From: Oscillospiraceae bacterium
Lineage (GTDB): Bacteria > Bacillota > Clostridia > Oscillospirales > Oscillospiraceae
Reading direction: 5' to 3'
Length of the DNA stretch: 64,000 bases
NCBI GenBank assembly: GCA_902765025.1
Contig: CACWYC010000001.1
Coordinates: 71,586-135,585, forward strand
Shown: positions 19,982 to 31,087 of the stretch, in pieces
Layout: every line of letters starts with the position of its first letter
Position numbering within the stretch: the stretch's first letter is position 1
Program-made: the position numbers and the translations under genes
The notes under the pieces: generated by a model
Seen by the model: only the letters and a program-made list of their open reading frames with translations
Databases searched by the model: none
Told to the model about the DNA's origin: nothing

Positions 19982-20058
19982 GCGCCCGTAGCTCAGTTGG
20001 ATAGAGTGTCAGACTCCGACTCTGAAGGTCGCAAGTTCGAATCTTGTCGGGCGTACCA
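19982..20058 (+). tRNA. tRNA-Arg(CCG)
   Basis: Cloverleaf; anticodon arm TCAGA-CTCCGAC-TCTGA, GTTCGAATC T-loop, encoded CCA. Confidence 0.95.
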
Positions 20059-20059
20059 G

Positions 20060-20108
20060 AACCCGCCTGACCCTGTGCCAAAGTTGGCACAGGGTCAGGC
20101 GGGTTTTC
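20060..20108 (+). terminator. Terminator after tRNA-Arg
   Basis: 22-bp perfect inverted repeat followed by a short T tract. Confidence 0.75.
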
Positions 20109-20380: not shown

Positions 20381-20409
20381 TTGCGAATACAGTGGAAATG
20401 ATATAAAAT
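20381..20409 (+). promoter_or_regulatory. Candidate SigA promoter of the cas operon
   Basis: TTGCGA-17bp-TAAAAT, about 165 nt upstream of cas3. Confidence 0.5.
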
Positions 20410-20574
20410 CAATTCATACAGTCCGTTTTATTGGACACATTATGCACTAAACTAAAGAATAAAAAGAATAAAAAAGAAGAATAAAAAAGAATAAAAAAGC
20501 AAAGAAAGCGAATCATTTAGGAGAAGATTGAGCGGGTATTTCTCAGCGAGGCGGGATAAGAGGGGGCGAATAAG

Positions 20575-23325
20575 ATGCAGTTGGCATACTCGGACCGCGA
20601 ACGAGCATGGGCGGTATTGACGCTTCTCCCGGGGAAAAGCGGATTTGATGACGGGAAAAAGTGGCTGCCCGTCCGCGTTCACGCACTTGATACAAGAGCT
20701 GCTATGGAGCGGTTATTAAACTCGTGGGTGCCGGAGCGGATCAGGCAACTGCTTCACACCGTAGACCGGCTTTCGGACGTCTGCGCGTTTTTGGCGTTGG
20801 TCCATGACATTGGAAAGCTGACGCCTGCGTTTTTGGGCAATATCCTTCCCAATCTGCCGGAGGTGAGTGAGCGCCTTGGCGAGGCAGGACTGGCGACCGG
20901 GTATCTCAGCAGAAATTCTTTGGTTCGCCACGCTACAGCGGGCGCAGCGATTTTGGCACAGCATTCCTGTCCGGCGGGAATTGTCGCTGTGGTCGGCGCA
21001 CACCACGGTAAGCCCATTTCTACGGAAGATGAACTAGATCTGTGCCACCATATGGAGATACACTCCAGAGACTATTTCGGCGCGGATGGCATAGACAGTG
21101 AGCAGGGACGCCTTTGGGCAGAGGTTCGGAGAATATGGCTCGACGAGTCGCTGCAGCGGGCGGGATTTGAATCGGTGGAAGAACTGCCGCAGCTTGACCT
21201 CCGGGCGCAGATGCTGCTGACTGGGCTTCTGATCGTGGCGGACTGGGTTGCCAGCAATCCTGACTTTTTCCCTCTGATTGACATGGAGGATGATGGCGAG
21301 CGGTTGGATCTAGAGCGCCGCGTTGCTGGGGCGTGGGAACGATTTGATCCCAGGTCGCCATGGAGTCCGCCGTATGTGCTTCCCGACGAGGGCTGGTTTA
21401 AGGATGCTTTTGGTTTTGAGCCGAATCAGGAACAACGAGCAATCACTCACGCGGCACAGAACAGTATGGAACCGGGCATCTATATTCTGGAAGCCCAGAT
21501 GGGCAGGGGCAAGACAGAAGCGGCGCTGGCTGCGGCGGAGGTGCTGGCGGGAAAGCTGAACTGTGGAGGCGTGTTCTTTGGCTTGCCCACGCAGGCAACG
21601 GCGAACGGCGTTTTCCCCAGATTAAAGATATGGGGTGAACGCCAAGCGGAGGACATGGATCTGACCATTCGGCTGGCGCACGGTAACGCCGCGTTGAACA
21701 AAGAGTACTGCGCCCTCTTTGACGAAAAAGCCAACGTGGACGCGGATGGAGAAAGTGGGCTTGTGGTGCATCCGTGGTTCAGCGGGAGGAAACAGGCGCT
21801 GCTGTCGGATTTTGTCATCGGTACCATCGATCAGTTTCTGATGGCAGGATTGAAGCAGAGGCACCTGATGCTGCGGCATCTGGGACTTGCGGGAAAGGTC
21901 ATCATTCTGGATGAGTGCCACGCTTACGATGCCTATATGAATCATTATCTGGATCGCGTGCTGAACTGGCTTGGCGCGTATGGCGCGCCGGTCATCATCC
22001 TGTCCGCTACACTGCCTGCCGCACGGCGGGCAGAGATGATAGACGCCTATCGAAACGTGGATCCCCATGCAGAAAAAAGTGTAGCTTGGAGGGGAAACCG
22101 TGCTTATCCGCTTCTGACCTGGACGCAGGGGGAGACAGTATATCAAGAGGTGATCACGCAGGATGCGCCATCCCGTGAGGTGGCGCTGGGACATCTGGCG
22201 GATGAGGCCTTGGTGTCGTGGCTGAGGAAGATGCTCTCACAGGGGGGCTGCGCGGGCGTGATCGTGAATACAGTTCGGCGAGCGCAGGAGGTAGCGCGGC
22301 AGCTGGAGCGCGCGTTGCCGGATAAGCAGGTGGAGCTGTTCCATTCGCAGTTCCTGATGCCTGACCGTGCCGAAAAGGAGAACCGGCTGGTCAGTCGGAT
22401 TGGGAAAGGATCCACGTCAGAAACACGGAATTCCCTCATCGTAGTGGGGACGCAGGTATTGGAGCAGTCATTGGACATTGATTTTGACTGTATGGCGACA
22501 GACCTTTGCCCAATGGATCTGCTGATGCAGCGCATCGGGCGTCTGCACCGCCACCGCCGCGATGATCGCCCTAAACCTTTGCACCGACCGATTTGCATGG
22601 TGATGGGCGCGGGTGAGACGCTGGACACAGGGAGCAAGGCGGTATACGGCGAATGGCTTTTGACGCGCACAAAGGAACTACTCCCTGACCGCCTGCTCCT
22701 GCCGGACAGTATCCCAACGCTGGTACAAAGCACCTATGAAGCGCCGCGGGAGGATGAATTGGACGGAAAGCAGGACATGTGGGAGAGGTATTCGGAGCAT
22801 CTTAAAATGAAAAAGGAGAGCGCAGATGCTTTCTGCCTTTGCCCACCGGACGAAACCGAAGGGTTCCCTCAGCTAAACACTATCAATGGCTGGCTGGACG
22901 CCGGCGTGACCGACAGCGACACTCGGGCGGAAGCCAGAGTACGCGATTCGGATAGCTCCCTTTCTGTCTTGCTTATGGTGCGGGACGAGGAAGGTGTTGT
23001 ACGCTTTCTCCCCTGGCAGGAACACGGCTGCGCTGTGCCGGGTGACAAACCGCCGGAGGAATCCGTGGCGAGAAGCGTTGCTGCCCAACGGGTGCAGTTG
23101 CCGCGAAGTCTTTCAGTCGGCTACATGGGGGATCATGTTTTTGACGTGCTTAAAAGAGAAAAAATGAAATATTTGCCCGGCTGGCAAAGCGCCCCATGGC
23201 TGCGGGAGGAATTGGTGCTCCTGCTGCGGGAGGATTTGACCCGTGAGCTGTGTGGCTATCAGGTCACTTATGATCGAAAATGGGGATTATGCTGTCAAAA
23301 GGAGACGGACAATGGGAATGGATGA
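20575..23325 (+). CDS. cas3: CRISPR-associated helicase/nuclease Cas3 (type I-E)
   Basis: HD nuclease (VHDIGK, GAHHG, ADW), Walker A QMGRGKTEA, DECHAY, LSATLP, TQVLEQSLDID, QRIGRLHRH. Confidence 0.97.
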   Translation: MQLAYSDRERAWAVLTLLPGKSGFDDGKKWLPVRVHALDTRAAMERLLNSWVPERIRQLLHTVDRLSDVCAFLALVHDIGKLTPAFLGNILPNLPEVSERLGEAGLATGYLSRNSLVRHATAGAAILAQHSCPAGIVAVVGAHHGKPISTEDELDLCHHMEIHSRDYFGADGIDSEQGRLWAEVRRIWLDESLQRAGFESVEELPQLDLRAQMLLTGLLIVADWVASNPDFFPLIDMEDDGERLDLERRVAGAWERFDPRSPWSPPYVLPDEGWFKDAFGFEPNQEQRAITHAAQNSMEPGIYILEAQMGRGKTEAALAAAEVLAGKLNCGGVFFGLPTQATANGVFPRLKIWGERQAEDMDLTIRLAHGNAALNKEYCALFDEKANVDADGESGLVVHPWFSGRKQALLSDFVIGTIDQFLMAGLKQRHLMLRHLGLAGKVIILDECHAYDAYMNHYLDRVLNWLGAYGAPVIILSATLPAARRAEMIDAYRNVDPHAEKSVAWRGNRAYPLLTWTQGETVYQEVITQDAPSREVALGHLADEALVSWLRKMLSQGGCAGVIVNTVRRAQEVARQLERALPDKQVELFHSQFLMPDRAEKENRLVSRIGKGSTSETRNSLIVVGTQVLEQSLDIDFDCMATDLCPMDLLMQRIGRLHRHRRDDRPKPLHRPICMVMGAGETLDTGSKAVYGEWLLTRTKELLPDRLLLPDSIPTLVQSTYEAPREDELDGKQDMWERYSEHLKMKKESADAFCLCPPDETEGFPQLNTINGWLDAGVTDSDTRAEARVRDSDSSLSVLLMVRDEEGVVRFLPWQEHGCAVPGDKPPEESVARSVAAQRVQLPRSLSVGYMGDHVFDVLKREKMKYLPGWQSAPWLREELVLLLREDLTRELCGYQVTYDRKWGLCCQKETDNGNG

Positions 23326-24952
23326 AAAAGAGTTTAATTTGATTGACGAACCGTGGATTAAGGTTAGAACGCCGACGCTGGCGGTAGAAACGGTGTCTTT
23401 GCAAGAGGCTCTGCTTCGCGCACATACTTTTGTTGACCTTGCCGGAGAGCTGCCGACACAGGATATGGCGGTTCTTCGCCTGCTGTTGGCTGTTCTACAT
23501 ACGGTGTTTTCAAGAGTGGACTGCGGCGGCAATCCCGCGCCGATTCAAAAGCCGGGACAGGCGCTGCTTCGCTGGAAAGAGCTGTGGGAAAATGGAATGT
23601 TTCCTGAAAAGCCGATTTGCGATTATCTGAAGAAATGGCATGAGCGATTCTGGCTGTTCCATCCCGAGAGACCGTTCTATCAGGTGCGAACGGCCGAGAA
23701 TGGAACCGTGTATTCCGCTGCAAAGCTGAACGGAGAAATATCAGAGAGCACAAATAAGGCGCGACTCTTTCCAACAAGGGCGGGCGAACAGAAGGGGACG
23801 CTTACTTTTGCAGAGAGCGCACGATGGTTGCTATACGTAAATGGCTTTGATGATACATCGTCAAAACCAAAGGCGAAAGGACTGCCCCCGGTGGGTGCGG
23901 GGTGGCTCGGGAAAATCGGTCTTATTTCTGCAGTGGGAGATAATCTCTTTGAAACATTGCTGCTGAATCTTGTGCTGTTGAAGGGAAAAAATGAAATCTG
24001 GGGTGAGAGCAAGCCAACATGGGAACTGGAAGTGCCGAGACAGTCCGAGCGTACGACCATCCCTCTGCCCGACAATCAAGCGGAATTACTGACGCTGCAA
24101 TCCCGGAGGATCATGCTGAAAAAGGCGGGAAACGCTGTGGAAGGGTATTCCTTGTTGGGCGGCGATGTTTTTCCCCCGGCAGATGCTTTTACAGAGCAAA
24201 TGACGCTTTGGTATCCATATGAAGAACATCATCGCACCGGATTTCGACCACAAAGACACCGTGCGGAGAAATACATCTGGCAGGAGTTTTCACCATTATT
24301 ATATCTCAATGAAAAAGGACGCCGCCCAGGCGTTATTACATGGATTGATACCGTAAAGAAAGCGCGCTGCCTGGATTCAAGGCGATGGATTTCATTTAGG
24401 TCAGCATCAGTTCAGTACGGAGACAAAGACTCTTTAGCTTCGGATGTTGTTGGAGATCAGATTACCTTTCATATGAATCTCATTACTGAAGCGGAAACAA
24501 TTTGGCAAAGGCTGATTGAGCGGGAAATTGGGAGAATCGACGACATTGCCTCAGCCGTCGGCGGGCTGGCGGGAAATCTGGAAAAGGCAGCGGGACATGT
24601 GGAGCGGGACGGCAAGGGGGTTATCGTGCATTCCGCAAAGATGGATTGCGCCAAAACAGCAAGAGAGCAGTATTACCACAAAATCGACGTGCCATTTCGG
24701 GAATGGCTGCGAAAGCTCGACCCTTCGCAGACGGATGTGGAGCGGGACAGGCTGCGCGACGAATGGATTGCCACCGCAAAACAGATTGCATTGGGCATGG
24801 GCAAAGAACTGGTCAAGGACGCGGGAGACATCGCCATGTTGGGGCGCTTCATTGAGGATAAAAAGGGCAGCAATGGCAAAAAGCACTATTCTGCGCCGGA
24901 GGCGTCCATAGAATTTAAACACAATGTCAACAGAATCTGTAAGGAGGGATAA
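23312..24952 (+). CDS. cas8e: Cascade large subunit Cas8e (Cse1/CasA)
   Basis: FNLIDEPWI, HPERPFYQ, ESARWLLYVNGFD motifs; position after cas3. Confidence 0.93.
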   Translation: MGMDEKEFNLIDEPWIKVRTPTLAVETVSLQEALLRAHTFVDLAGELPTQDMAVLRLLLAVLHTVFSRVDCGGNPAPIQKPGQALLRWKELWENGMFPEKPICDYLKKWHERFWLFHPERPFYQVRTAENGTVYSAAKLNGEISESTNKARLFPTRAGEQKGTLTFAESARWLLYVNGFDDTSSKPKAKGLPPVGAGWLGKIGLISAVGDNLFETLLLNLVLLKGKNEIWGESKPTWELEVPRQSERTTIPLPDNQAELLTLQSRRIMLKKAGNAVEGYSLLGGDVFPPADAFTEQMTLWYPYEEHHRTGFRPQRHRAEKYIWQEFSPLLYLNEKGRRPGVITWIDTVKKARCLDSRRWISFRSASVQYGDKDSLASDVVGDQITFHMNLITEAETIWQRLIEREIGRIDDIASAVGGLAGNLEKAAGHVERDGKGVIVHSAKMDCAKTAREQYYHKIDVPFREWLRKLDPSQTDVERDRLRDEWIATAKQIALGMGKELVKDAGDIAMLGRFIEDKKGSNGKKHYSAPEASIEFKHNVNRICKEG

Positions 24953-24953
24953 T

Positions 24954-25571
24954 ATGCCACTGGAAAACCAATTGGACGCGGTGTACAGATACACCGCAAA
25001 GCAGATTGCCGCGCTTTGTGCCGGACCTGACGGCCAAAAAGCCGACTTGGCGGAGCTGCGGCGGGGGCTTGGCAAAGCGCCGGGAGAGGAACCGAGACTC
25101 TGGGGTATGTTTCTCTCTGAGCTGCCGCCGGAGCTGTACGGCAGGGGCGGAGAACCCAGCCGGGGCGAATGGGCGGTCTATACCGCGCTGACATTATTCG
25201 CGCTGCATCAGCAGGGAAGAAAACCGAGCACGGAATCAGTCAATCGGCAGGGCATTCGTCTGGGCCAGGCGGTTGCTGCTCTGGTGGAATATGACGAATC
25301 AGGCAGGCGGGACGACAACTCGTGGGAGCGCATCCGGCGACGGCTCATCATTTCCGCCTCCGCGCAGGACATACGTGAGCTTGCCTATCATCTGCGCACC
25401 CTTGTCCGCATGCTGCGGGATGAGGGGCAGACTCTGGATTATCCGGCACTGGCAAAAGAGCTTTATCTGTGGCAGACGCCGCAGGGAACTGAACGAATCA
25501 AACTGGAGTGGGCGGAGGATTTTCATCGGAACTGCCCCATCGACCGCAAATCAAAGGAGGAAGCGCAATGA
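24954..25571 (+). CDS. cse2: Cascade small subunit Cas11/Cse2 (CasB)
   Basis: LAELRRGLGK, ALTLFALHQQG, LDYPALAKELY, WAEDF. Confidence 0.93.
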   Translation: MPLENQLDAVYRYTAKQIAALCAGPDGQKADLAELRRGLGKAPGEEPRLWGMFLSELPPELYGRGGEPSRGEWAVYTALTLFALHQQGRKPSTESVNRQGIRLGQAVAALVEYDESGRRDDNSWERIRRRLIISASAQDIRELAYHLRTLVRMLRDEGQTLDYPALAKELYLWQTPQGTERIKLEWAEDFHRNCPIDRKSKEEAQ

Positions 25572-26641
25572 AAAACAATCTTTACATCGACATTCATGTT
25601 CTGCAAACCGTCCCGCCGAGCTGTGTGAACCGTGATGACACAGGCAGCCCCAAAACCGCTGTCTATGGCGGCGTCACCCGCGCCAGAGTGTCCAGCCAGG
25701 CGTGGAAGAAGGCGATTCGGGATGTTTTTCGAAATCAACCTATGGCAGATAATCCAAGCAGACGCACCAAGAGAATTGTGGATATGGTCGCCGAGAAAAT
25801 CGCACAGCGGTCTCCCGAGGACGACGCGCAGAAGCTGGCAATCAAGGCGCTGATCAACGCCGGACTGAACGTGGAGGAGAAGCATCCCCAAAAGGGAACG
25901 GATGCGTTGTTTTTCATGAGCGATAGTCAGGCGGCCCAGCTTGCCAAGCTGATTTGCGAAGGAAACGAGGATAAAAAGGCGTACAAAGGAGCCTTGAAAG
26001 AAAAACCCTCTGTGGACATGGTGCTGTTTGGCCGCATGGTAGCAAGCGATCCATCCCTCAATTACGACGCTGCGGCGCAGGTGGCGCACAGCATCTCTAC
26101 CCATGAGGTGCGCAACGAGTTCGACTATTTCACGGCAATCGACGATTTGAGCGACGAGGACAGCGCCGGCGCCGGCCACATCGGTACGACGGAGTTCAAT
26201 TCCTCCACGCTCTACCGCTACGCTACCGTGAACGTCTGTGAGGCAGAGAAATGGCTGGCAAAGGACACACCTCGCGCCATAAGGGACTTTGTGAGCGCAT
26301 TCCTCTCTTCCATGCCCACAGGGAAGCAGAACAGCTTCGCCAATCGCACCGCTCCCGACTGCGTTTATGTCACTGTCCGCAGGGATCAGCCCGTGAATTT
26401 GGTGGGCGCGTTTGAAAAGCCGATTCGTTCGCGGGATGGTTACGCCGCCGCGTCGGAAACGGCGCTGGCAAAGTATGCCGAGGAAACCTACGATCGTTTT
26501 GTGGACAAGCCCGCTCTGGCGTTCTGCGTCAGCAGGCACGGAGAGAACTGGGCAGATGCGGAACACCTGGGGCGGGACCAGCTTCTGGAACGGGTGGAGA
26601 AGGCCGTCCGGGAAGCGTGCCAGCACGGCGAGGTGGACTGA
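25568..26641 (+). CDS. cas7: Cascade backbone Cas7 (Cse4/CasC)
   Basis: IDIHVLQTVPPSCVNRDDTGSPK, RVSSQAWK, LFGRMVA, AHSISTH, DYFTAIDD. Confidence 0.96.
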   Translation: MKNNLYIDIHVLQTVPPSCVNRDDTGSPKTAVYGGVTRARVSSQAWKKAIRDVFRNQPMADNPSRRTKRIVDMVAEKIAQRSPEDDAQKLAIKALINAGLNVEEKHPQKGTDALFFMSDSQAAQLAKLICEGNEDKKAYKGALKEKPSVDMVLFGRMVASDPSLNYDAAAQVAHSISTHEVRNEFDYFTAIDDLSDEDSAGAGHIGTTEFNSSTLYRYATVNVCEAEKWLAKDTPRAIRDFVSAFLSSMPTGKQNSFANRTAPDCVYVTVRRDQPVNLVGAFEKPIRSRDGYAAASETALAKYAEETYDRFVDKPALAFCVSRHGENWADAEHLGRDQLLERVEKAVREACQHGEVD

Positions 26642-27342
26642 TGGCTACCCTGTTGCTCCGCTTGGCGGCACCCCTGCAAAGCTGGGGAGCAGAGTCCAAG
26701 TTCGATACCCGGCGTACCGGCAGGGAACCGACCAAAAGCGGCGTGATCGGGCTTCTGGCTGCGGCGCTGGGCATCCGGCGCGACGCCGACGCAGAAATCC
26801 AAGGGCTGTCAGCCGCGCTTCGCTTCGGCGTGCGCGTGGACCGGGAGGGCGAACTGCTGCGGGACTACCATATGGTTCACAAGGATGAAAAAACAGCCTA
26901 TTTGACAAATCGCTACTATCTCGCGGACGCGGTATTTCTGGTGGGACTGGAGAGCAACGATGCCGCGCTGCTGGAAAAGTTGGAATACGCGCTGCGCCAT
27001 CCTGCGTTTCCGTTGTTTCTCGGCCGCCGCTCCTGCCCGCCTACGCCGCCGCTGTCCCTCGGCGTTCGTGACGGTGAACTGCTGACTGTTTTGCAGGAAG
27101 AACCGCGCATACGTTACGAAGGGAGACCGACGCATAGCGTTCGTATCGTGACGGATGGAATTGCCGGCGAACGCAATACCGGCATACAACGGGATGCGCC
27201 AATGTCGTTCGACTCGCGCCATCGGCGCTTTGCGGAACGCGCTGTGACACAGTGGGGCTTCGTGTCCCTGCCGGATGAAACCCCGTCATATTTCTTTACG
27301 GAGCACGATCCTTTGCGTGAGCTGGGAGGTGAGCAGTTATGA
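26641..27342 (+). CDS. cas5: Cas5e (CasD)
   Basis: LLLRLAAPLQSWG, PTKSGVIGLLAAALG, LFLGRRSCPP. Confidence 0.96.
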   Translation: MATLLLRLAAPLQSWGAESKFDTRRTGREPTKSGVIGLLAAALGIRRDADAEIQGLSAALRFGVRVDREGELLRDYHMVHKDEKTAYLTNRYYLADAVFLVGLESNDAALLEKLEYALRHPAFPLFLGRRSCPPTPPLSLGVRDGELLTVLQEEPRIRYEGRPTHSVRIVTDGIAGERNTGIQRDAPMSFDSRHRRFAERAVTQWGFVSLPDETPSYFFTEHDPLRELGGEQL

Positions 27343-27975
27343 TCCTGTCGCGTATGGAACTGGACCCCACAAAACGGGAAACAAGGCTGGCGCTGGCCGC
27401 GCCAAGCCGATTCCACGGTGCAATCGAGAGCGCCTTTCCCGGAGAACGACGCAGGCGGCTGTGGCGGCTGGATGTTCTGCACGGGACACCCTATCTTTTG
27501 ATCCTCAGTGAGGACCGCCCCGATCTGACCGGCGCGGTTACGCAGTTCGGCGTGTCGGGACATGAGCCACAGTGGGAATCACGGGACTATTCGCCTCTGC
27601 TGACCCGCACTGTGGCGGGAAGCTGTTGGTATTTTCGCCTGACGGCGAATCCTACGCGCAGCAAGTCCCGAGCCGGGGAGAGGGGAAAGGTGCTGGCGCA
27701 CATTACACCATACTTTCAAAGGCAATGGCTCATAGAGCAGAGCAAAAAGCGGGGCTTCGCCATCTGTGAGGACGGATTCGAGGTGGTGAGCAGCCAATGG
27801 CTGCATTTTGACAAAAGGGGACGCAACGCTGTGACACTGCTGTCCGCTACCTTCGAGGGCGTGCTGACTGTGACCGATGAGGTGCTGTTCCGCAAGACAC
27901 TGACTGAGGGCATTGGCCGCGGAAAAGCCTACGGAATGGGATTACTGACGCTTATGCGCGTTTCGGAGACGAACA

Positions 27976-27983
<8 letters not shown>
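27339..27983 (+). CDS. cas6: crRNA-processing endoribonuclease Cas6e (Cse3/CasE)
   Basis: FRLTANPT, FEGVLTV, Gly-rich loop GIGRGKAYGMGLL. Confidence 0.96.
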
Positions 27984-29036
<1,053 letters not shown>

Positions 29037-29149
29037 AAGCAATTGCATTTGCGTAAGCCGTAATACATCATTATACCGTGAGACATTGCATCACGAAAGA
29101 AGATGCTATTCCCGCCGCGAGTGGATGATGCGGCAACCCCGTATAACAT

Positions 29150-29172
29150 CAGCCCAAAGGCTGCTTTTTTTC
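29150..29172 (+). terminator. Probable terminator downstream of the array
   Basis: CAGCC-CAAA-GGCTG followed by CTTTTTTT. Confidence 0.55.
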
Positions 29173-29338: not shown

Positions 29339-31087
29339 ATGCCTACCAAAAAGACCGCTGAAACGAAAGAAACGGCCCCCCTGACCCCGGAGGTCAACGA
29401 GACCGCCACCAAGGCCGCGGAAAAGAAGCCCGCCGCCAGGAAGACCACGGCCAAGAAGCCGGCAGAGAAGAAGCCCGCCGCCAAAAAGGCTGCCCCCAAA
29501 AAGGAAAAGGCGGCGCAAGCCCCTGCCCAGGCAGCGGAATCATCTGTTGCGCCCGCCCAGCCTGTGGAAGCTCCCGCCCAGCCCGCCCCGGTGGAGGAGG
29601 CCCCCGCCCAGCCCGCCGCTCCCGCCATGCCGGAGCCCCGCCGCAGCGTGGCCTTTATCGGCTCGGAGTGCTATCCCTTTGTGAAGACCGGCGGTCTGGG
29701 CGACGTGATGTACGCCCTGCCCAAGGCGTTGATTGCCCAGAACTGTGACGTGAAGGTGATTCTGCCCCGGTATAAGTGCATCCCCCAGAAGTACCAGGAC
29801 AAGATGGTGTTCCGGGGTGATTTCTCCATGGACCTCACCGCCGACGGACGGCGCTATTACGTGGGCATCATGGAGTACGTCTGGGACGGCGTGGTGTACG
29901 ATTTCATCGACAACGAGGAGTTTTTCAGCTGGGGCAATCCCTACACCAACCTGGTGGATGATATCCCCAAGTTCTGCTACTTCGCCAAGGCGGCGCTGGC
30001 GGCGCTGAACTACATGAACTGGGTGCCCGACATCATCCACTGCCACGACTGGCAGGCCGCGCTGGTGCCTGTGTTCCAGCAGGCCATGTTCCAGGGCACG
30101 CCGGTGGCCTCCGCCAAGTCGGTGCTGACCATCCATAACCTGCGCTTCCAGGGCATTTACAACACCCAGACCATTAAATACTGGACCAATCTGCCCGACG
30201 CCCTCTTTGACTACGCCGTGCTGAAGCAGAACTGGGTGGACGCCAACATGCTCAAAGCCGGCCTCAGCTACGCCAGCATGATTACCACCGTCAGCCACAC
30301 CTACGCCGCCGAGATTCAGACCCCCTTCTACGGCGAGGGCCTGGACGCCCATCTGCGCTACCACTCCGGCAAGCTGCGTGGCATCGTCAACGGCATCGAC
30401 TGTGAGCAGTGGGACACCACCACCGACCCGCTGCTGCCGGTGAACTACGGCATCGCCGACGTGGTGGAGAAGAAAAAGGCCGACAAGCTGGCCCTGCAGG
30501 CGGCCCTGGGCCTGGAGCAGGACGAGAACAAATTCGTTATCGGCCTTATCTCCCGCCTCACCAACCAGAAGGGCCTGGACCTCATCAGCGCCATTATGCC
30601 CGCCCTCGTGGACGGCAACACCCAGGTGGTGGTGCTGGGCACCGGCGACAAGGAGTATGAGGACGCCTTCCGCTATTATGAATACGCCTACAAGGGCAGC
30701 GTCTGCTCCAACATCATGTACGACGAGGGCCGCGCCCACCAGATTTACGCCGCTGCCGACGCCCTGCTGGTGCCCAGCCTGTTCGAGCCCTGCGGCCTGA
30801 CCCAGCTCATCGCCATGCGCTGCGGCACCGTGCCCATCGTCCGGGAGACCGGCGGATTGAAGGACACCGTGCAGCCCTACAACGAGTTCACCAACGAGGG
30901 TAATGGCTTCACCTTCGACCGCTATGAGGCGGGACTGCTGCTGGACGCCTGCAACCGGGCCAAAACGGTGTATTTCACCGCCCGTGACCGCTGGGACCAG
31001 ATGGTGGTGCGGGACATGGCCAAGGACGTGTCCTGGGAGAACTCCGCCAAGCAGTACCGCAACCTGTATCTGGAGCTGAAGCCCTGA
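29339..31087 (+). CDS. glgA: Glycogen synthase with ~100-aa low-complexity N-terminal extension
   Basis: KTGGLGDV, HCHDWQ, TIHNL, SRLTNQKG, EPCGLTQL, RETGGLKDTV; RBS AAGGAG before ATG 29339. Confidence 0.95.
   Translation: MPTKKTAETKETAPLTPEVNETATKAAEKKPAARKTTAKKPAEKKPAAKKAAPKKEKAAQAPAQAAESSVAPAQPVEAPAQPAPVEEAPAQPAAPAMPEPRRSVAFIGSECYPFVKTGGLGDVMYALPKALIAQNCDVKVILPRYKCIPQKYQDKMVFRGDFSMDLTADGRRYYVGIMEYVWDGVVYDFIDNEEFFSWGNPYTNLVDDIPKFCYFAKAALAALNYMNWVPDIIHCHDWQAALVPVFQQAMFQGTPVASAKSVLTIHNLRFQGIYNTQTIKYWTNLPDALFDYAVLKQNWVDANMLKAGLSYASMITTVSHTYAAEIQTPFYGEGLDAHLRYHSGKLRGIVNGIDCEQWDTTTDPLLPVNYGIADVVEKKKADKLALQAALGLEQDENKFVIGLISRLTNQKGLDLISAIMPALVDGNTQVVVLGTGDKEYEDAFRYYEYAYKGSVCSNIMYDEGRAHQIYAAADALLVPSLFEPCGLTQLIAMRCGTVPIVRETGGLKDTVQPYNEFTNEGNGFTFDRYEAGLLLDACNRAKTVYFTARDRWDQMVVRDMAKDVSWENSAKQYRNLYLELKP

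Follow-up and report, generated by a model that had tools for sequence, protein, structure and literature searches.

The window, by which the whole 64,000-nt stretch of DNA analysed is meant, derives from the draft genome of a gut Clostridia bacterium (54 contigs, 97.9% complete) and carries the complete attack machinery of a CRISPR-Cas system of type I-E together with 13 old spacers, its spacer-acquisition genes and leader having been lost. With effector genes intact, adaptation genes absent and an array present, the locus probably persists as an interference-only type I-E system with a fixed 13-spacer memory, belonging to the Cas2-DnaQ subclade of Clostridia. Type I loci confined to interference have been described before; what is new is the recurrence of junctions that join cas1 to the first base of the first repeat. 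Loss of adaptation with retention of interference turns adaptive immunity into an innate immunity of fixed specificity, and spacers of such lineages in gut metagenomes represent old rather than recent encounters, which changes how spacer content is read. Two sequence signatures mark frozen arrays of this kind, namely a cas1 stump abutting repeat 1 and heterogeneous repeats.

Interference genes and the lost adaptation module

The interference genes follow the order expected of type I-E, from Cas3 through Cas8e (Cse1), Cse2, Cas7 and Cas5e to Cas6e (Table 1). Cas3 matches the Pfam families Cas3_HD, DEAD, Helicase_C and Cas3_C, and PF09481, PF09485, PF09344, PF09704 and PF08798 score far above their cut-offs. 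Catalytic motifs are present in Cas3 (HD motif LVHDIGK, Walker A GRGKT at residue 310, DECH at residue 446) and in Cas6e (the invariant His26). Across cas3-cas6e (20575-27983), 463 of 468 near-invariant residues are kept, near-invariant positions being alignment columns at least 95% conserved among 30 relatives. Neighbouring genes abut or share 1-14 nt, the start of cas8e being adopted from the gene call of assembly L082.

Table 1. Coordinates of the features of the CRISPR-Cas locus and its surroundings in the window.
Feature	Position	Strand	Basis or remark
tRNA-Arg(CCG), directly upstream of the CRISPR-Cas block	19982..20058	+	ARAGORN; Rfam tRNA 67.5 bits
Strong terminator hairpin, 20-bp stem, closing the tRNA unit	20060..20105	+	Sequence scan
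Two sigma-70-like promoter candidates 5' of cas3, TTGCGA-17-TAAAAT and TGGACA-17-AAGAAT	20381..20460	+	Consensus matches only
cas3, 916 aa, HD nuclease + SF2 helicase + C-terminal domain	20575..23325	+	Pfam Cas3_HD 1.6e-36; 151/152 near-invariant columns kept
cas8e/cse1, 546 aa	23312..24952	+	Pfam 2.4e-99; 87/88 columns kept
cse2/cas11, 205 aa	24954..25571	+	Pfam 1.9e-33; 19/20 columns kept
cas7, 357 aa	25568..26641	+	Pfam 1.7e-114; 98/100 columns kept
cas5e, 233 aa	26641..27342	+	Pfam 1.5e-48; 56/56 columns kept
cas6e, 214 aa, crRNA endoribonuclease	27339..27983	+	Pfam 7e-56; 52/52 columns kept
cas1 pseudogene remnant, 240 nt	27976..28215	+	Three blocks aligned to intact cas1 of L002
cas1 remnant block A, codons 1-24	28047 (end), from 27976	+	Alignment to L002 cas1
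cas1 remnant filler, 6 nt	28048-28053	+	
cas1 remnant block B	28054-28080	+	Alignment to L002 cas1
cas1 remnant block C, codons about 122-167	28080-28215	+	Alignment to L002 cas1
CRISPR array, 14 repeats of 29 nt CTATTCCCCGCGCACGCGGGGGTGATCCC and 13 spacers of 32 nt	28216..29037	+	61-nt period
Spacer 2, target in a gut phage family's gene for the terminase large subunit	28306..28337	+	35 IMG/VR contigs and GenBank MT835607.1
Spacer 8, 32/32 match, PAM AAC	28672..28703	+	Two IMG/VR contigs (L202, L203)
Spacer 13, 31/32 match, PAM AAC	28977..29008	+	Viral contig L202, also matched by spacer 8
Probable decayed 15th repeat CTATTCCCGCCGCGAGTGGATGATGCGGC, in the trailer	29106..29134	+	Read directly from sequence
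Terminator-like hairpin CAGCCCAAAGGCTG, then T7 run	29150..29172	+	Likely end of the cas-array transcription unit

The adaptation module that would adjoin the array is reduced to the cas1 remnant, and where a leader would be expected, cas1 sequence runs up to the base before repeat 1. Alignment to the closest relative (L002), in which cas1 is intact, resolves three deletions, all within the adaptation module: 81 bp replaced by a 6-nt filler, a frameshifting loss of 184 bp, and a loss of about 1.35 kb that removed the 3' half of cas1, cas2-dnaQ and the leader. The anatomy given in the preliminary description (full-length cas3, cas8e, cse2, cas7, cas5 and cas6 with catalytic motifs, a destroyed cas1, no cas2, and an array followed by a terminator) was thus recovered throughout. 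Its absent AT-rich leader requires rewording: the leader is indeed gone, but no long AT-rich leader exists in relatives from this clade, where just 10-44 nt separate the cas2-dnaQ stop codon from repeat 1, a distance measured in the present analysis rather than derived from the literature. The leader of these relatives ends in TTTTTAG(T).

Gene set and order from cas3 to cas6e are shared with the type I-E system of E. coli K-12 (cas3-casABCDE-cas1-cas2-leader-array), as are the palindromic 29-nt hairpin repeat, here in the same orientation as the cas genes, the 32-nt spacers, the 61-nt period and the AAN-type 5' PAM (AAC at the protospacers matched here), whose last base matches that of the repeat. 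In contrast to E. coli, cas1, cas2 and the leader are missing, cas3 apparently lies in one operon with the Cascade genes, and the array abuts the cas1 stump and hence has no leader promoter. Judged by Cas3-Cas6e sequence similarity (71-81% to L002), the locus may be placed among the Cas2-DnaQ type I-E systems, in which Cas2 (PF09707) is fused to an RNase_T/DnaQ exonuclease (PF00929), as in L002 and nearly all Clostridia relatives. This subclade, which is Streptococcus thermophilus CRISPR4-like, reportedly figures in work of Drabavicius and colleagues (in 2018) and of Sinkunas and colleagues (in 2013). Cas6e of L002 is 81% identical to that of the window and the PAM is likewise of AA type, whereas the fusion gene itself has been lost entirely from the window.

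Cas1, Cas2 and the leader are needed for the addition of new spacers. Searches of the whole genome (97.9% complete) with PF01867, PF09707 and PF09827 found no Cas1 or Cas2, and the array is the only one in the genome. Four independent ENA assemblies (L082-L085), produced with different assemblers, agree with the window at every one of the 30 nt upstream of repeat 1, and their spacers are the same 13 or a subset of them, with nothing else; across the five assemblies the only change in allele or spacers is the loss of spacers 5-7 in two (L083, L084). The junction is therefore no artefact and the array is frozen. That misassembly or misbinning removed cas1, cas2 and leader, as a 54-contig draft and the tendency of CRISPR arrays to break assemblies might suggest, is scarcely credible, since the junction also sits inside a 192-kb contig and the two further deletions internal to cas1 are inexplicable by misjoining.

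Furthermore, point substitutions affect seven of the 13 non-terminal repeats, against 0-10% variant repeats in most relatives with an intact module, and the terminal repeat 14 is degenerate; mutated repeats are a signature of arrays no longer refreshed. A 7-bp hairpin is predicted in 13 of the 14 repeats, which matched no Rfam CRISPR-DR family at the gathering score. The earlier claim that the system cannot adapt is accordingly well supported by a genome lacking Cas1 and Cas2, a single array, mutated repeats and no new spacers in the four further assemblies.

Natural systems without adaptation genes include a conserved I-B cas operon of Clostridioides difficile, termed 'partial', as well as Tn7-associated I-F3 and type IV systems without cas1-cas2, where interference or guide use goes on with existing spacers. 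Like the window, these loci keep effectors and array without cas1/cas2. However, they usually have a second complete locus or a supply of spacers in trans and keep the leader, whereas the present genome has no Cas1 at all and its leader is deleted to the base.

Recurrent junctions at the first repeat

In six independent alleles, at least five of them in related bacteria besides that of the window, cas1 sequence leads straight into the first base of a repeat. A human-gut species carries one such allele in 18 contigs, nearly half of those found. In this polymorphic species the median non-modal repeat fraction is 0.67 behind cas1 deletions versus 0.12 behind intact modules (p = 2.6e-6).

The leader-repeat 1 bond is the point attacked by the Cas1-Cas2 integrase. 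Because the final deletion in the window ends exactly there, it may have arisen when the leader-repeat junction underwent a break or a strand transfer. It is possible, although this is put forward tentatively, that the adaptation module was destroyed by its own enzyme, through attack of Cas1-Cas2(-DnaQ) at this bond. Two routes could be envisaged: a chromosomal 3' end inside cas1 might be used as a 'prespacer', or a nick left at the bond might become a break. Under either, the left end of the deletion would vary in position within cas1, and its right end would fall exactly on the repeat's first base. A self-inflicted event of this type would recurrently convert adaptive loci of type I-E into interference-only loci that are frozen, leaderless and operon-fused, able to persist for long periods and to reach high frequency, as with the 18 contigs of the human-gut species. 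By analogy, intramolecular transposition or autointegration produces adjacent deletions that end exactly at the transposon end; one end is variable and the other is fixed at precisely the bond on which a DDE or integrase-type enzyme acts, a part that Cas1-Cas2 might play here. No demonstration of deletions made by Cas1-Cas2 and ending at the repeat is known to us or was found in the literature searched. If the integrase itself makes these junctions, adaptation modules carry an intrinsic risk of self-destruction, which would help explain the frequent loss or silence of CRISPR adaptation in nature.

Transcription of the operon and array

The tRNA-Arg(CCG) gene is a possible island insertion site. 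As its unit is closed by a terminator, the cas operon needs its own promoter downstream, and the candidates 5' of cas3 are followed by an A-rich tract (20454-20508). Between cas6e and repeat 1, no terminator-like site was found on the + strand, in agreement with the preliminary description, and no promoter-like -35/-10 pair scoring at least 8/12 was found on that strand within 27000-28320. Co-transcription of the cas operon and the array is plausible from the sequence because the gap between cas2-dnaQ and array in relatives is so short; the array of the gut species' allele A begins 17 nt into cas1. The lack of promoter- and terminator-like sites, the very short leaders of relatives and the abutting or overlapping cas genes all fit read-through. 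To be set against this, and to be added to the preliminary description, is a weak terminator-like hairpin inside the array, in repeat 3/spacer 3 (28353-28369).

A cryptic promoter of the array's own, inside cas6e, the cas1 remnant or spacer 6, appears improbable. Candidate elements do exist, namely TGGTATTTT at 27627 in cas6e and, at 28566-28574 in spacer 6, TGCTATAAT, a perfect extended -10 that could drive crRNAs 7-13, and intact relatives likewise need either a promoter within dnaQ or read-through. The spacer 6 element cannot serve spacers 1-6, however, the locus is kept in L083 and L084 despite the lack of spacers 5-7, and the absence of a -35/-10 pair from 27000-28320 also speaks against such a promoter. 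Under read-through, a single transcript would start between 20106 and 20574, cross the tightly packed cas3-cas6e operon, continue over the cas1 remnant to the array and end at the terminator at 29150-29172. Cas6e would then cleave every repeat hairpin, releasing 61-nt crRNAs for loading by Cascade, which would locate protospacers with a 5'-AAC PAM and recruit Cas3.

Spacer targets and the case for retained function

In IMG/VR, exact matches to 23-27 specified bases were sought for seven spacers, which covered eight of the 13, all among spacers 1-8 and 13, because one degenerate pattern served both spacer 1 and spacer 5, which are variants of one protospacer. Five of the eight gave no match on these terms. 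The PAM of the spacer 2 protospacer is AAC at every site (35/35 in IMG/VR, and in MT835607.1); all but one of the 35 IMG/VR contigs differ from the spacer at 2-3 PAM-distal positions.

Within the host genome, a related 32-mer with an AAC PAM (C12:76598-76629) matches spacer 5 at 25 of 32 positions. This site could suggest that the locus has been repurposed for gene regulation through partial self-targeting instead of defence, a role raised in the preliminary description. Such a role is very unlikely and finds no support: the site, the sole notable self-match, is mismatched at seed positions 3, 4 and 7, for every other spacer the match to the genome is 22 nt at most, and cas3 is intact although silencing alone would not need it. 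The site also lies in an apparent resident integrative element with integrase-like and type I R-M-like ORFs (called by eye). Together with the seed mismatches, this gives it the look of a target that is tolerated or has escaped.

It has to be considered whether the locus is a decaying relic, silent or useless and heading for loss, its genes intact for want of time since the deletion. Strains of the lineage differ by less than 0.2%, repeats are decaying, with the stem of repeat 4 weakened (-8.5 vs -13.2 kcal/mol), and the five unmatched spacers point the same way. In addition, dN/dS against L002, the intact-cas1 comparison proposed earlier, is 0.11-0.22 but cannot isolate the post-deletion period; the cas1 remnant is biased towards third positions in the same way (9, 5, 21), so most divergence predates the loss, which is young relative to the L002 split. 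Against this, three deletions and eight repeat substitutions accrued while 7.4 kb of cas ORFs stayed open with their near-invariant residues, and only one of the eight substitutions hit the 7-bp stem (binomial p is 0.04 when 14 positions are counted as stem and 0.09 when 12 are). The same architecture is found in L004, which has the same kind of deletion and intact cas3-cas6e, and it also persists in the 18 gut-species contigs, whose repeats are very decayed. A relic is thus unlikely, though less so than a cryptic promoter.

The claims that the locus can still target and is retained by selection gain only indirect support, read from sequence, from conserved residues, stem-sparing repeat substitutions, three spacers matching viruses, AAC as the PAM throughout and Cascade genes left intact in other deletion lineages. 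Continued selection on the interference genes is hinted at by the confinement of all three deletions to the adaptation module and, in L085, by three substitutions in the 240-nt cas1 remnant versus two in 1410 nt of cas5-cas6e (Fisher p = 0.024), within-lineage variation being tiny and the selection tests resting on a handful of substitutions. Of 14 contigs of the gut species with a deletion allele, 13 have kept cse2-cas6e intact.

Interference genes and loss of the adaptation module

Six genes, cas3 to cas6e, lie consecutively on the plus strand and are all of type I-E by Pfam; since neighbours overlap or abut, they look like one translationally coupled operon. When each protein was aligned with 30 relatives, the near-invariant columns (at least 95% conserved) were kept at 151 of 152 positions in Cas3, 87 of 88 in Cas8e, 19 of 20 in Cse2, 98 of 100 in Cas7, 56 of 56 in Cas5 and 52 of 52 in Cas6e. 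In addition, Cas3 carries its HD, Walker A (GRGKT) and DECH motifs, and the invariant His26 is present in Cas6e.

Features of the locus and left ends of the further deletion alleles
Feature	Position	Strand	Remark
tRNA-Arg(CCG)	19982-20058		upstream of cas genes
Strong terminator	20060-20105		upstream of cas3
A-rich tandem tract	20454-20508		directly upstream of cas3 ribosome-binding site
cas3	20575-23325	+	Pfam
cas8e	23312-24952	+	Pfam
cse2	24954-25571	+	Pfam
cas7	25568-26641	+	Pfam
cas5	26641-27342	+	Pfam
cas6e	27339-27983	+	Pfam
Collinear block 1	27961-28047		L002 8388-8474, local alignment
Collinear block 2	28054-28080		L002 8556-8582, local alignment
Collinear block 3	28080-28215		L002 8766-8901, local alignment
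CRISPR array	28216-29037		14 repeats of 29 nt, 13 spacers of 32 nt
Spacer 1	28245-28276
Weak terminator-like hairpin	28353-28369
Spacer 5	28489-28520
Extended -10 in spacer 6	28566-28574		array sense direction
Decayed 15th repeat (probable)	29106
Hairpin and T7 run	29150-29172		after array
Lys/Ala/Pro-rich N-terminal extension	29339-29650		glycogen synthase gene
Allele L004	cas1 codon about 52		sheep-colon MAG
Allele A	cas1 codon 6		human-gut species; 18 contigs, close to half of those recovered for the species
Allele L148	cas1 codon about 28
Allele L161	cas1 codon about 255
Allele L146	cas1 codon about 285

Local alignment to the closest relative, L002, showed the 240 nt that separate cas6e from repeat 1 to be a cas1 remnant. 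L002 comes from a Clostridia MAG (Cas6e 81% identical), and in it an intact cas1 is followed by cas2 fused to an RNase_T/DnaQ exonuclease, and then by the array. The alignment falls into three collinear blocks, and three deletions are therefore recognized relative to L002: the first took out 81 bp of cas1, with a 6-nt filler in its place; the second, of 184 bp, shifted the frame; and the third, of about 1.35 kb, comprised the remainder of cas1, cas2-dnaQ and the leader. The preliminary description, which saw interference genes present and the adaptation module lost, is thus borne out by Pfam and by the alignment. Its suggestion to look for another cas1 or cas2 was followed across the entire 2.06-Mb genome (54 contigs, 97.9% complete), where Cas1 (PF01867) and both Cas2 families had no match even at E = 10; control genomes did match. 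A k-mer scan of the genome found no second CRISPR array: read directly, the candidate on contig C3 consists of protein-coding tandem repeats and those on C21 and C33 of GC-rich tandem repeats, and the candidates on C12 and C30 were dismissed on context.

The array itself ends in a degenerate fourteenth repeat. Exact-protein look-up of Cas6e retrieved contigs of the same lineage from four independent ENA assemblies (L082-L085), all with the same 30 nt preceding repeat 1, which counters the possibility of an assembly artefact. Spacers 1-13 are retained in order in L082 and L085, only spacers 5-7 are missing from L083 and L084, and none of the four contains a new spacer. With no Cas1 or Cas2 in the genome and interference genes intact, the earlier reading of a frozen, interference-only system is well supported. 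Furthermore, eight substitutions are spread over seven of the 13 non-terminal repeats, and variant repeats amount to 0-10% in most relatives with intact modules; such heterogeneity fits an array no longer renewed by copying of repeat 1. Within one polymorphic human-gut species, the median proportion of non-modal repeats was 0.67 behind deletion alleles versus 0.12 in intact alleles (Mann-Whitney p = 2.6e-6), and the window array stands at 0.54. That repeat heterogeneity marks frozen arrays is statistically clear and constitutes a new element of this work. In kind, the locus counts as a degenerate I-E system, and type I loci lacking adaptation were known before.

Deletions ending on the leader-repeat bond

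The right end of the third deletion is the base before repeat 1, the sequence reading ...ACCGT up to the junction and CTATTCCCC beyond it. The same junction was sought in 80 GTDB and 80 metagenome loci, and five further independent alleles in which cas1 runs into repeat 1 were recovered, giving six with the window, four of them known from single contigs. At each of the six junctions, 0-1 nt separates the cas1 homology from the start of repeat 1; the left ends are all situated in cas1, never in cas2-dnaQ, and the cas genes of the deletion alleles are intact. Allele A and the intact allele of its species occupy one chromosomal locus; in the contigs with allele A (L115-L165) the three bases immediately before repeat 1 vary (GGG, AGG, GCC, GGT) and the preceding 70 nt are nearly invariant. 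Losses ending at repeat 1 are one kind among several. Internal cas1 losses with the leader kept are indicated by tblastn coverage for L028, L052 and L060, and possibly for L043, L063 and L106; in L103 cas1 passes into foreign sequence, and in L031 unrelated DNA follows cas6e. No description of exact cas1-to-repeat deletions was found in the literature searched. Both the recurrence of deletions ending exactly on the leader-repeat bond and the persistence of such alleles with intact Cascade genes are new.

In I-E integration, the leader-repeat bond is the first one attacked by the Cas1-Cas2 integrase, and we infer that attack on this bond may have given rise to the exact deletions. Slippage or microhomology was rejected as an origin, the junctions sharing just 0-2 nt. 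If a cas1-derived spacer had recombined with the sequence it came from, a PAM would be expected 33-35 nt to the left, yet AAN occurs at -35 to -33 in none of the six junctions; the test is weak, since about one site in 16 shows AA by chance and self-spacers that survive may be without a PAM. Moreover, of the 2360 spacers across all retrieved loci, none stems from cas1, cas2 or dnaQ. Selection alone for an intact first repeat would be satisfied by any endpoint in the 10-44-nt leader, yet six of six fall on the same bond. Self-spacer recombination and repeat selection thus fare worse than integrase attack.

Four points are nevertheless problems for the integrase idea, among them the restriction of the left ends to cas1 and the support of four alleles by a single contig each. 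L146 and L161 have in common an internal 357-nt cas1 deletion, but differ in their right junctions and carry unrelated arrays, which requires either that strains recombined, that an integrase acted in trans, or that the mechanism was independent of Cas1. Allele A, in turn, is interspersed with intact alleles on the tree of upstream cas genes and has diverse arrays, implying either recurrence at the same site or spread by recombination; spread is favoured because the cas8e and cas7 alleles are mosaic. In this species (L115-L166), identity among alleles splits cas8e into two groups, at about 64% and about 98%, and cas7 likewise, at about 83% and about 98%, which indicates mosaic recombination or diversifying selection on Cascade. 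The public record of one metagenome contig, L135, includes Nextera adapter sequence (CTGTCTCTTATACACATCT...) at its end (1000-1041), an artefact.

Transcription of the array

No promoter-like pair scoring at least 8/12 was found on the plus strand between 27000 and 28320, and no terminator-like site from cas6e to repeat 1. The AT-rich leader that the preliminary description reported as missing has indeed been deleted from the window, but it was never long in this clade: in about 55 Clostridia relatives repeat 1 follows the cas2-dnaQ stop codon after 10-44 nt, with a conserved TTTTTAG(T) at the end of this gap. The gap is about 93 nt in Rothia relatives, which lack the DnaQ fusion. The array promoter of the clade must lie inside or upstream of dnaQ, which makes co-transcription of the array with the cas operon a reasonable ancestral state. 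On sequence grounds, the proposed read-through from the cas operon would be plausible, the weak terminator-like hairpin near the start of the array being a caveat. A second caveat is spacer 6, among those missing from L083 and L084: a further transcript, serving crRNAs 7-13, could begin from the perfect extended -10 element (TGCTATAAT) that it holds. Many short leaders of Cas2-DnaQ I-E relatives (L005-L081) comprise a small hairpin and then a T-rich run ending in TTTTTAG, resembling a terminator set directly before the array.

Possible continued use, targets and genomic setting

Several indirect lines, the viral matches of spacers 2, 8 and 13 among them, point to an interference system that may still be in use. 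All three deletions fall within the 2.3-kb adaptation part and none within the 7.4-kb interference part. Of the eight substitutions in the repeats, only one lies in the 7-bp stem (binomial p = 0.04 if 14 stem positions are counted, 0.09 if 12), and the hairpin fold is still predicted for 13 of 14 repeats. L085 differs by three substitutions in the 240-nt remnant and by two in the 1410 nt spanning cas5-cas6e (Fisher p = 0.024). For all six genes, comparison with L002 gives a pairwise dN/dS of 0.11-0.22, which has little power for the post-deletion period: the cas1 remnant shares the third-position excess (9, 5, 21), so most divergence predates the loss. A regulatory role, the other option raised initially, found no support.

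In 35 IMG/VR contigs and in GenBank MT835607.1, a terminase large-subunit gene (Pfam Terminase_3, Terminase_6N) holds a match to spacer 2; the PAM is AAC every time, and 34 of the 35 contigs differ from the spacer at 2-3 PAM-distal positions. AAC is likewise the PAM of the 32/32 matches of spacer 8 in two viral contigs and of the 31/32 match of spacer 13 in one of these two. Under the I-E rule the final PAM base becomes the final repeat base, and the repeat ends in C, as AAC predicts. Exact scans of IMG/VR gave no match for spacers 1/5, 3, 4, 6 and 7, and whole-array BLAST against GenBank phages was swamped by repeat matches. Spacers 1 and 5 are identical at 27 of 32 positions, all five differences being transitions. 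A third variant of this site, agreeing with spacer 5 at 25 of 32 positions, occurs in the host genome (C12:76598-76629, minus strand); its PAM is AAC, but it has seed mismatches at positions 3, 4 and 7; because integrase-like and type I R-M-like ORFs were spotted there by eye, the region looks like a tolerated resident mobile element. An apparent self-target is also seen within L002, where spacer 10647-10678 matches 58-89 of the same contig at 32/32 with an AAC PAM, in a terminator-like palindrome about 900 bp upstream of cas3.

A relative of Cas6e is encoded by none of 36 congeneric and none of 24 same-order species, and for this reason the locus is probably a horizontally acquired island beside a tRNA gene. 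An empty insertion site was sought by DNA search of congeners, a genus too divergent at the DNA level to inform. Between the strong terminator and cas3 lies an AT-rich stretch with two promoter-like sites. The A-rich tract is unusual, being composed of AAAGAATAAAAAG-like units 9-13 nt apart, and is absent upstream of cas3 in L002. Downstream of the array, the glycogen synthase gene encodes an N-terminal Lys/Ala/Pro-rich extension of about 100 aa, containing tandem repeats of 15 nt, with a weak match to histone-H1-like HC2.
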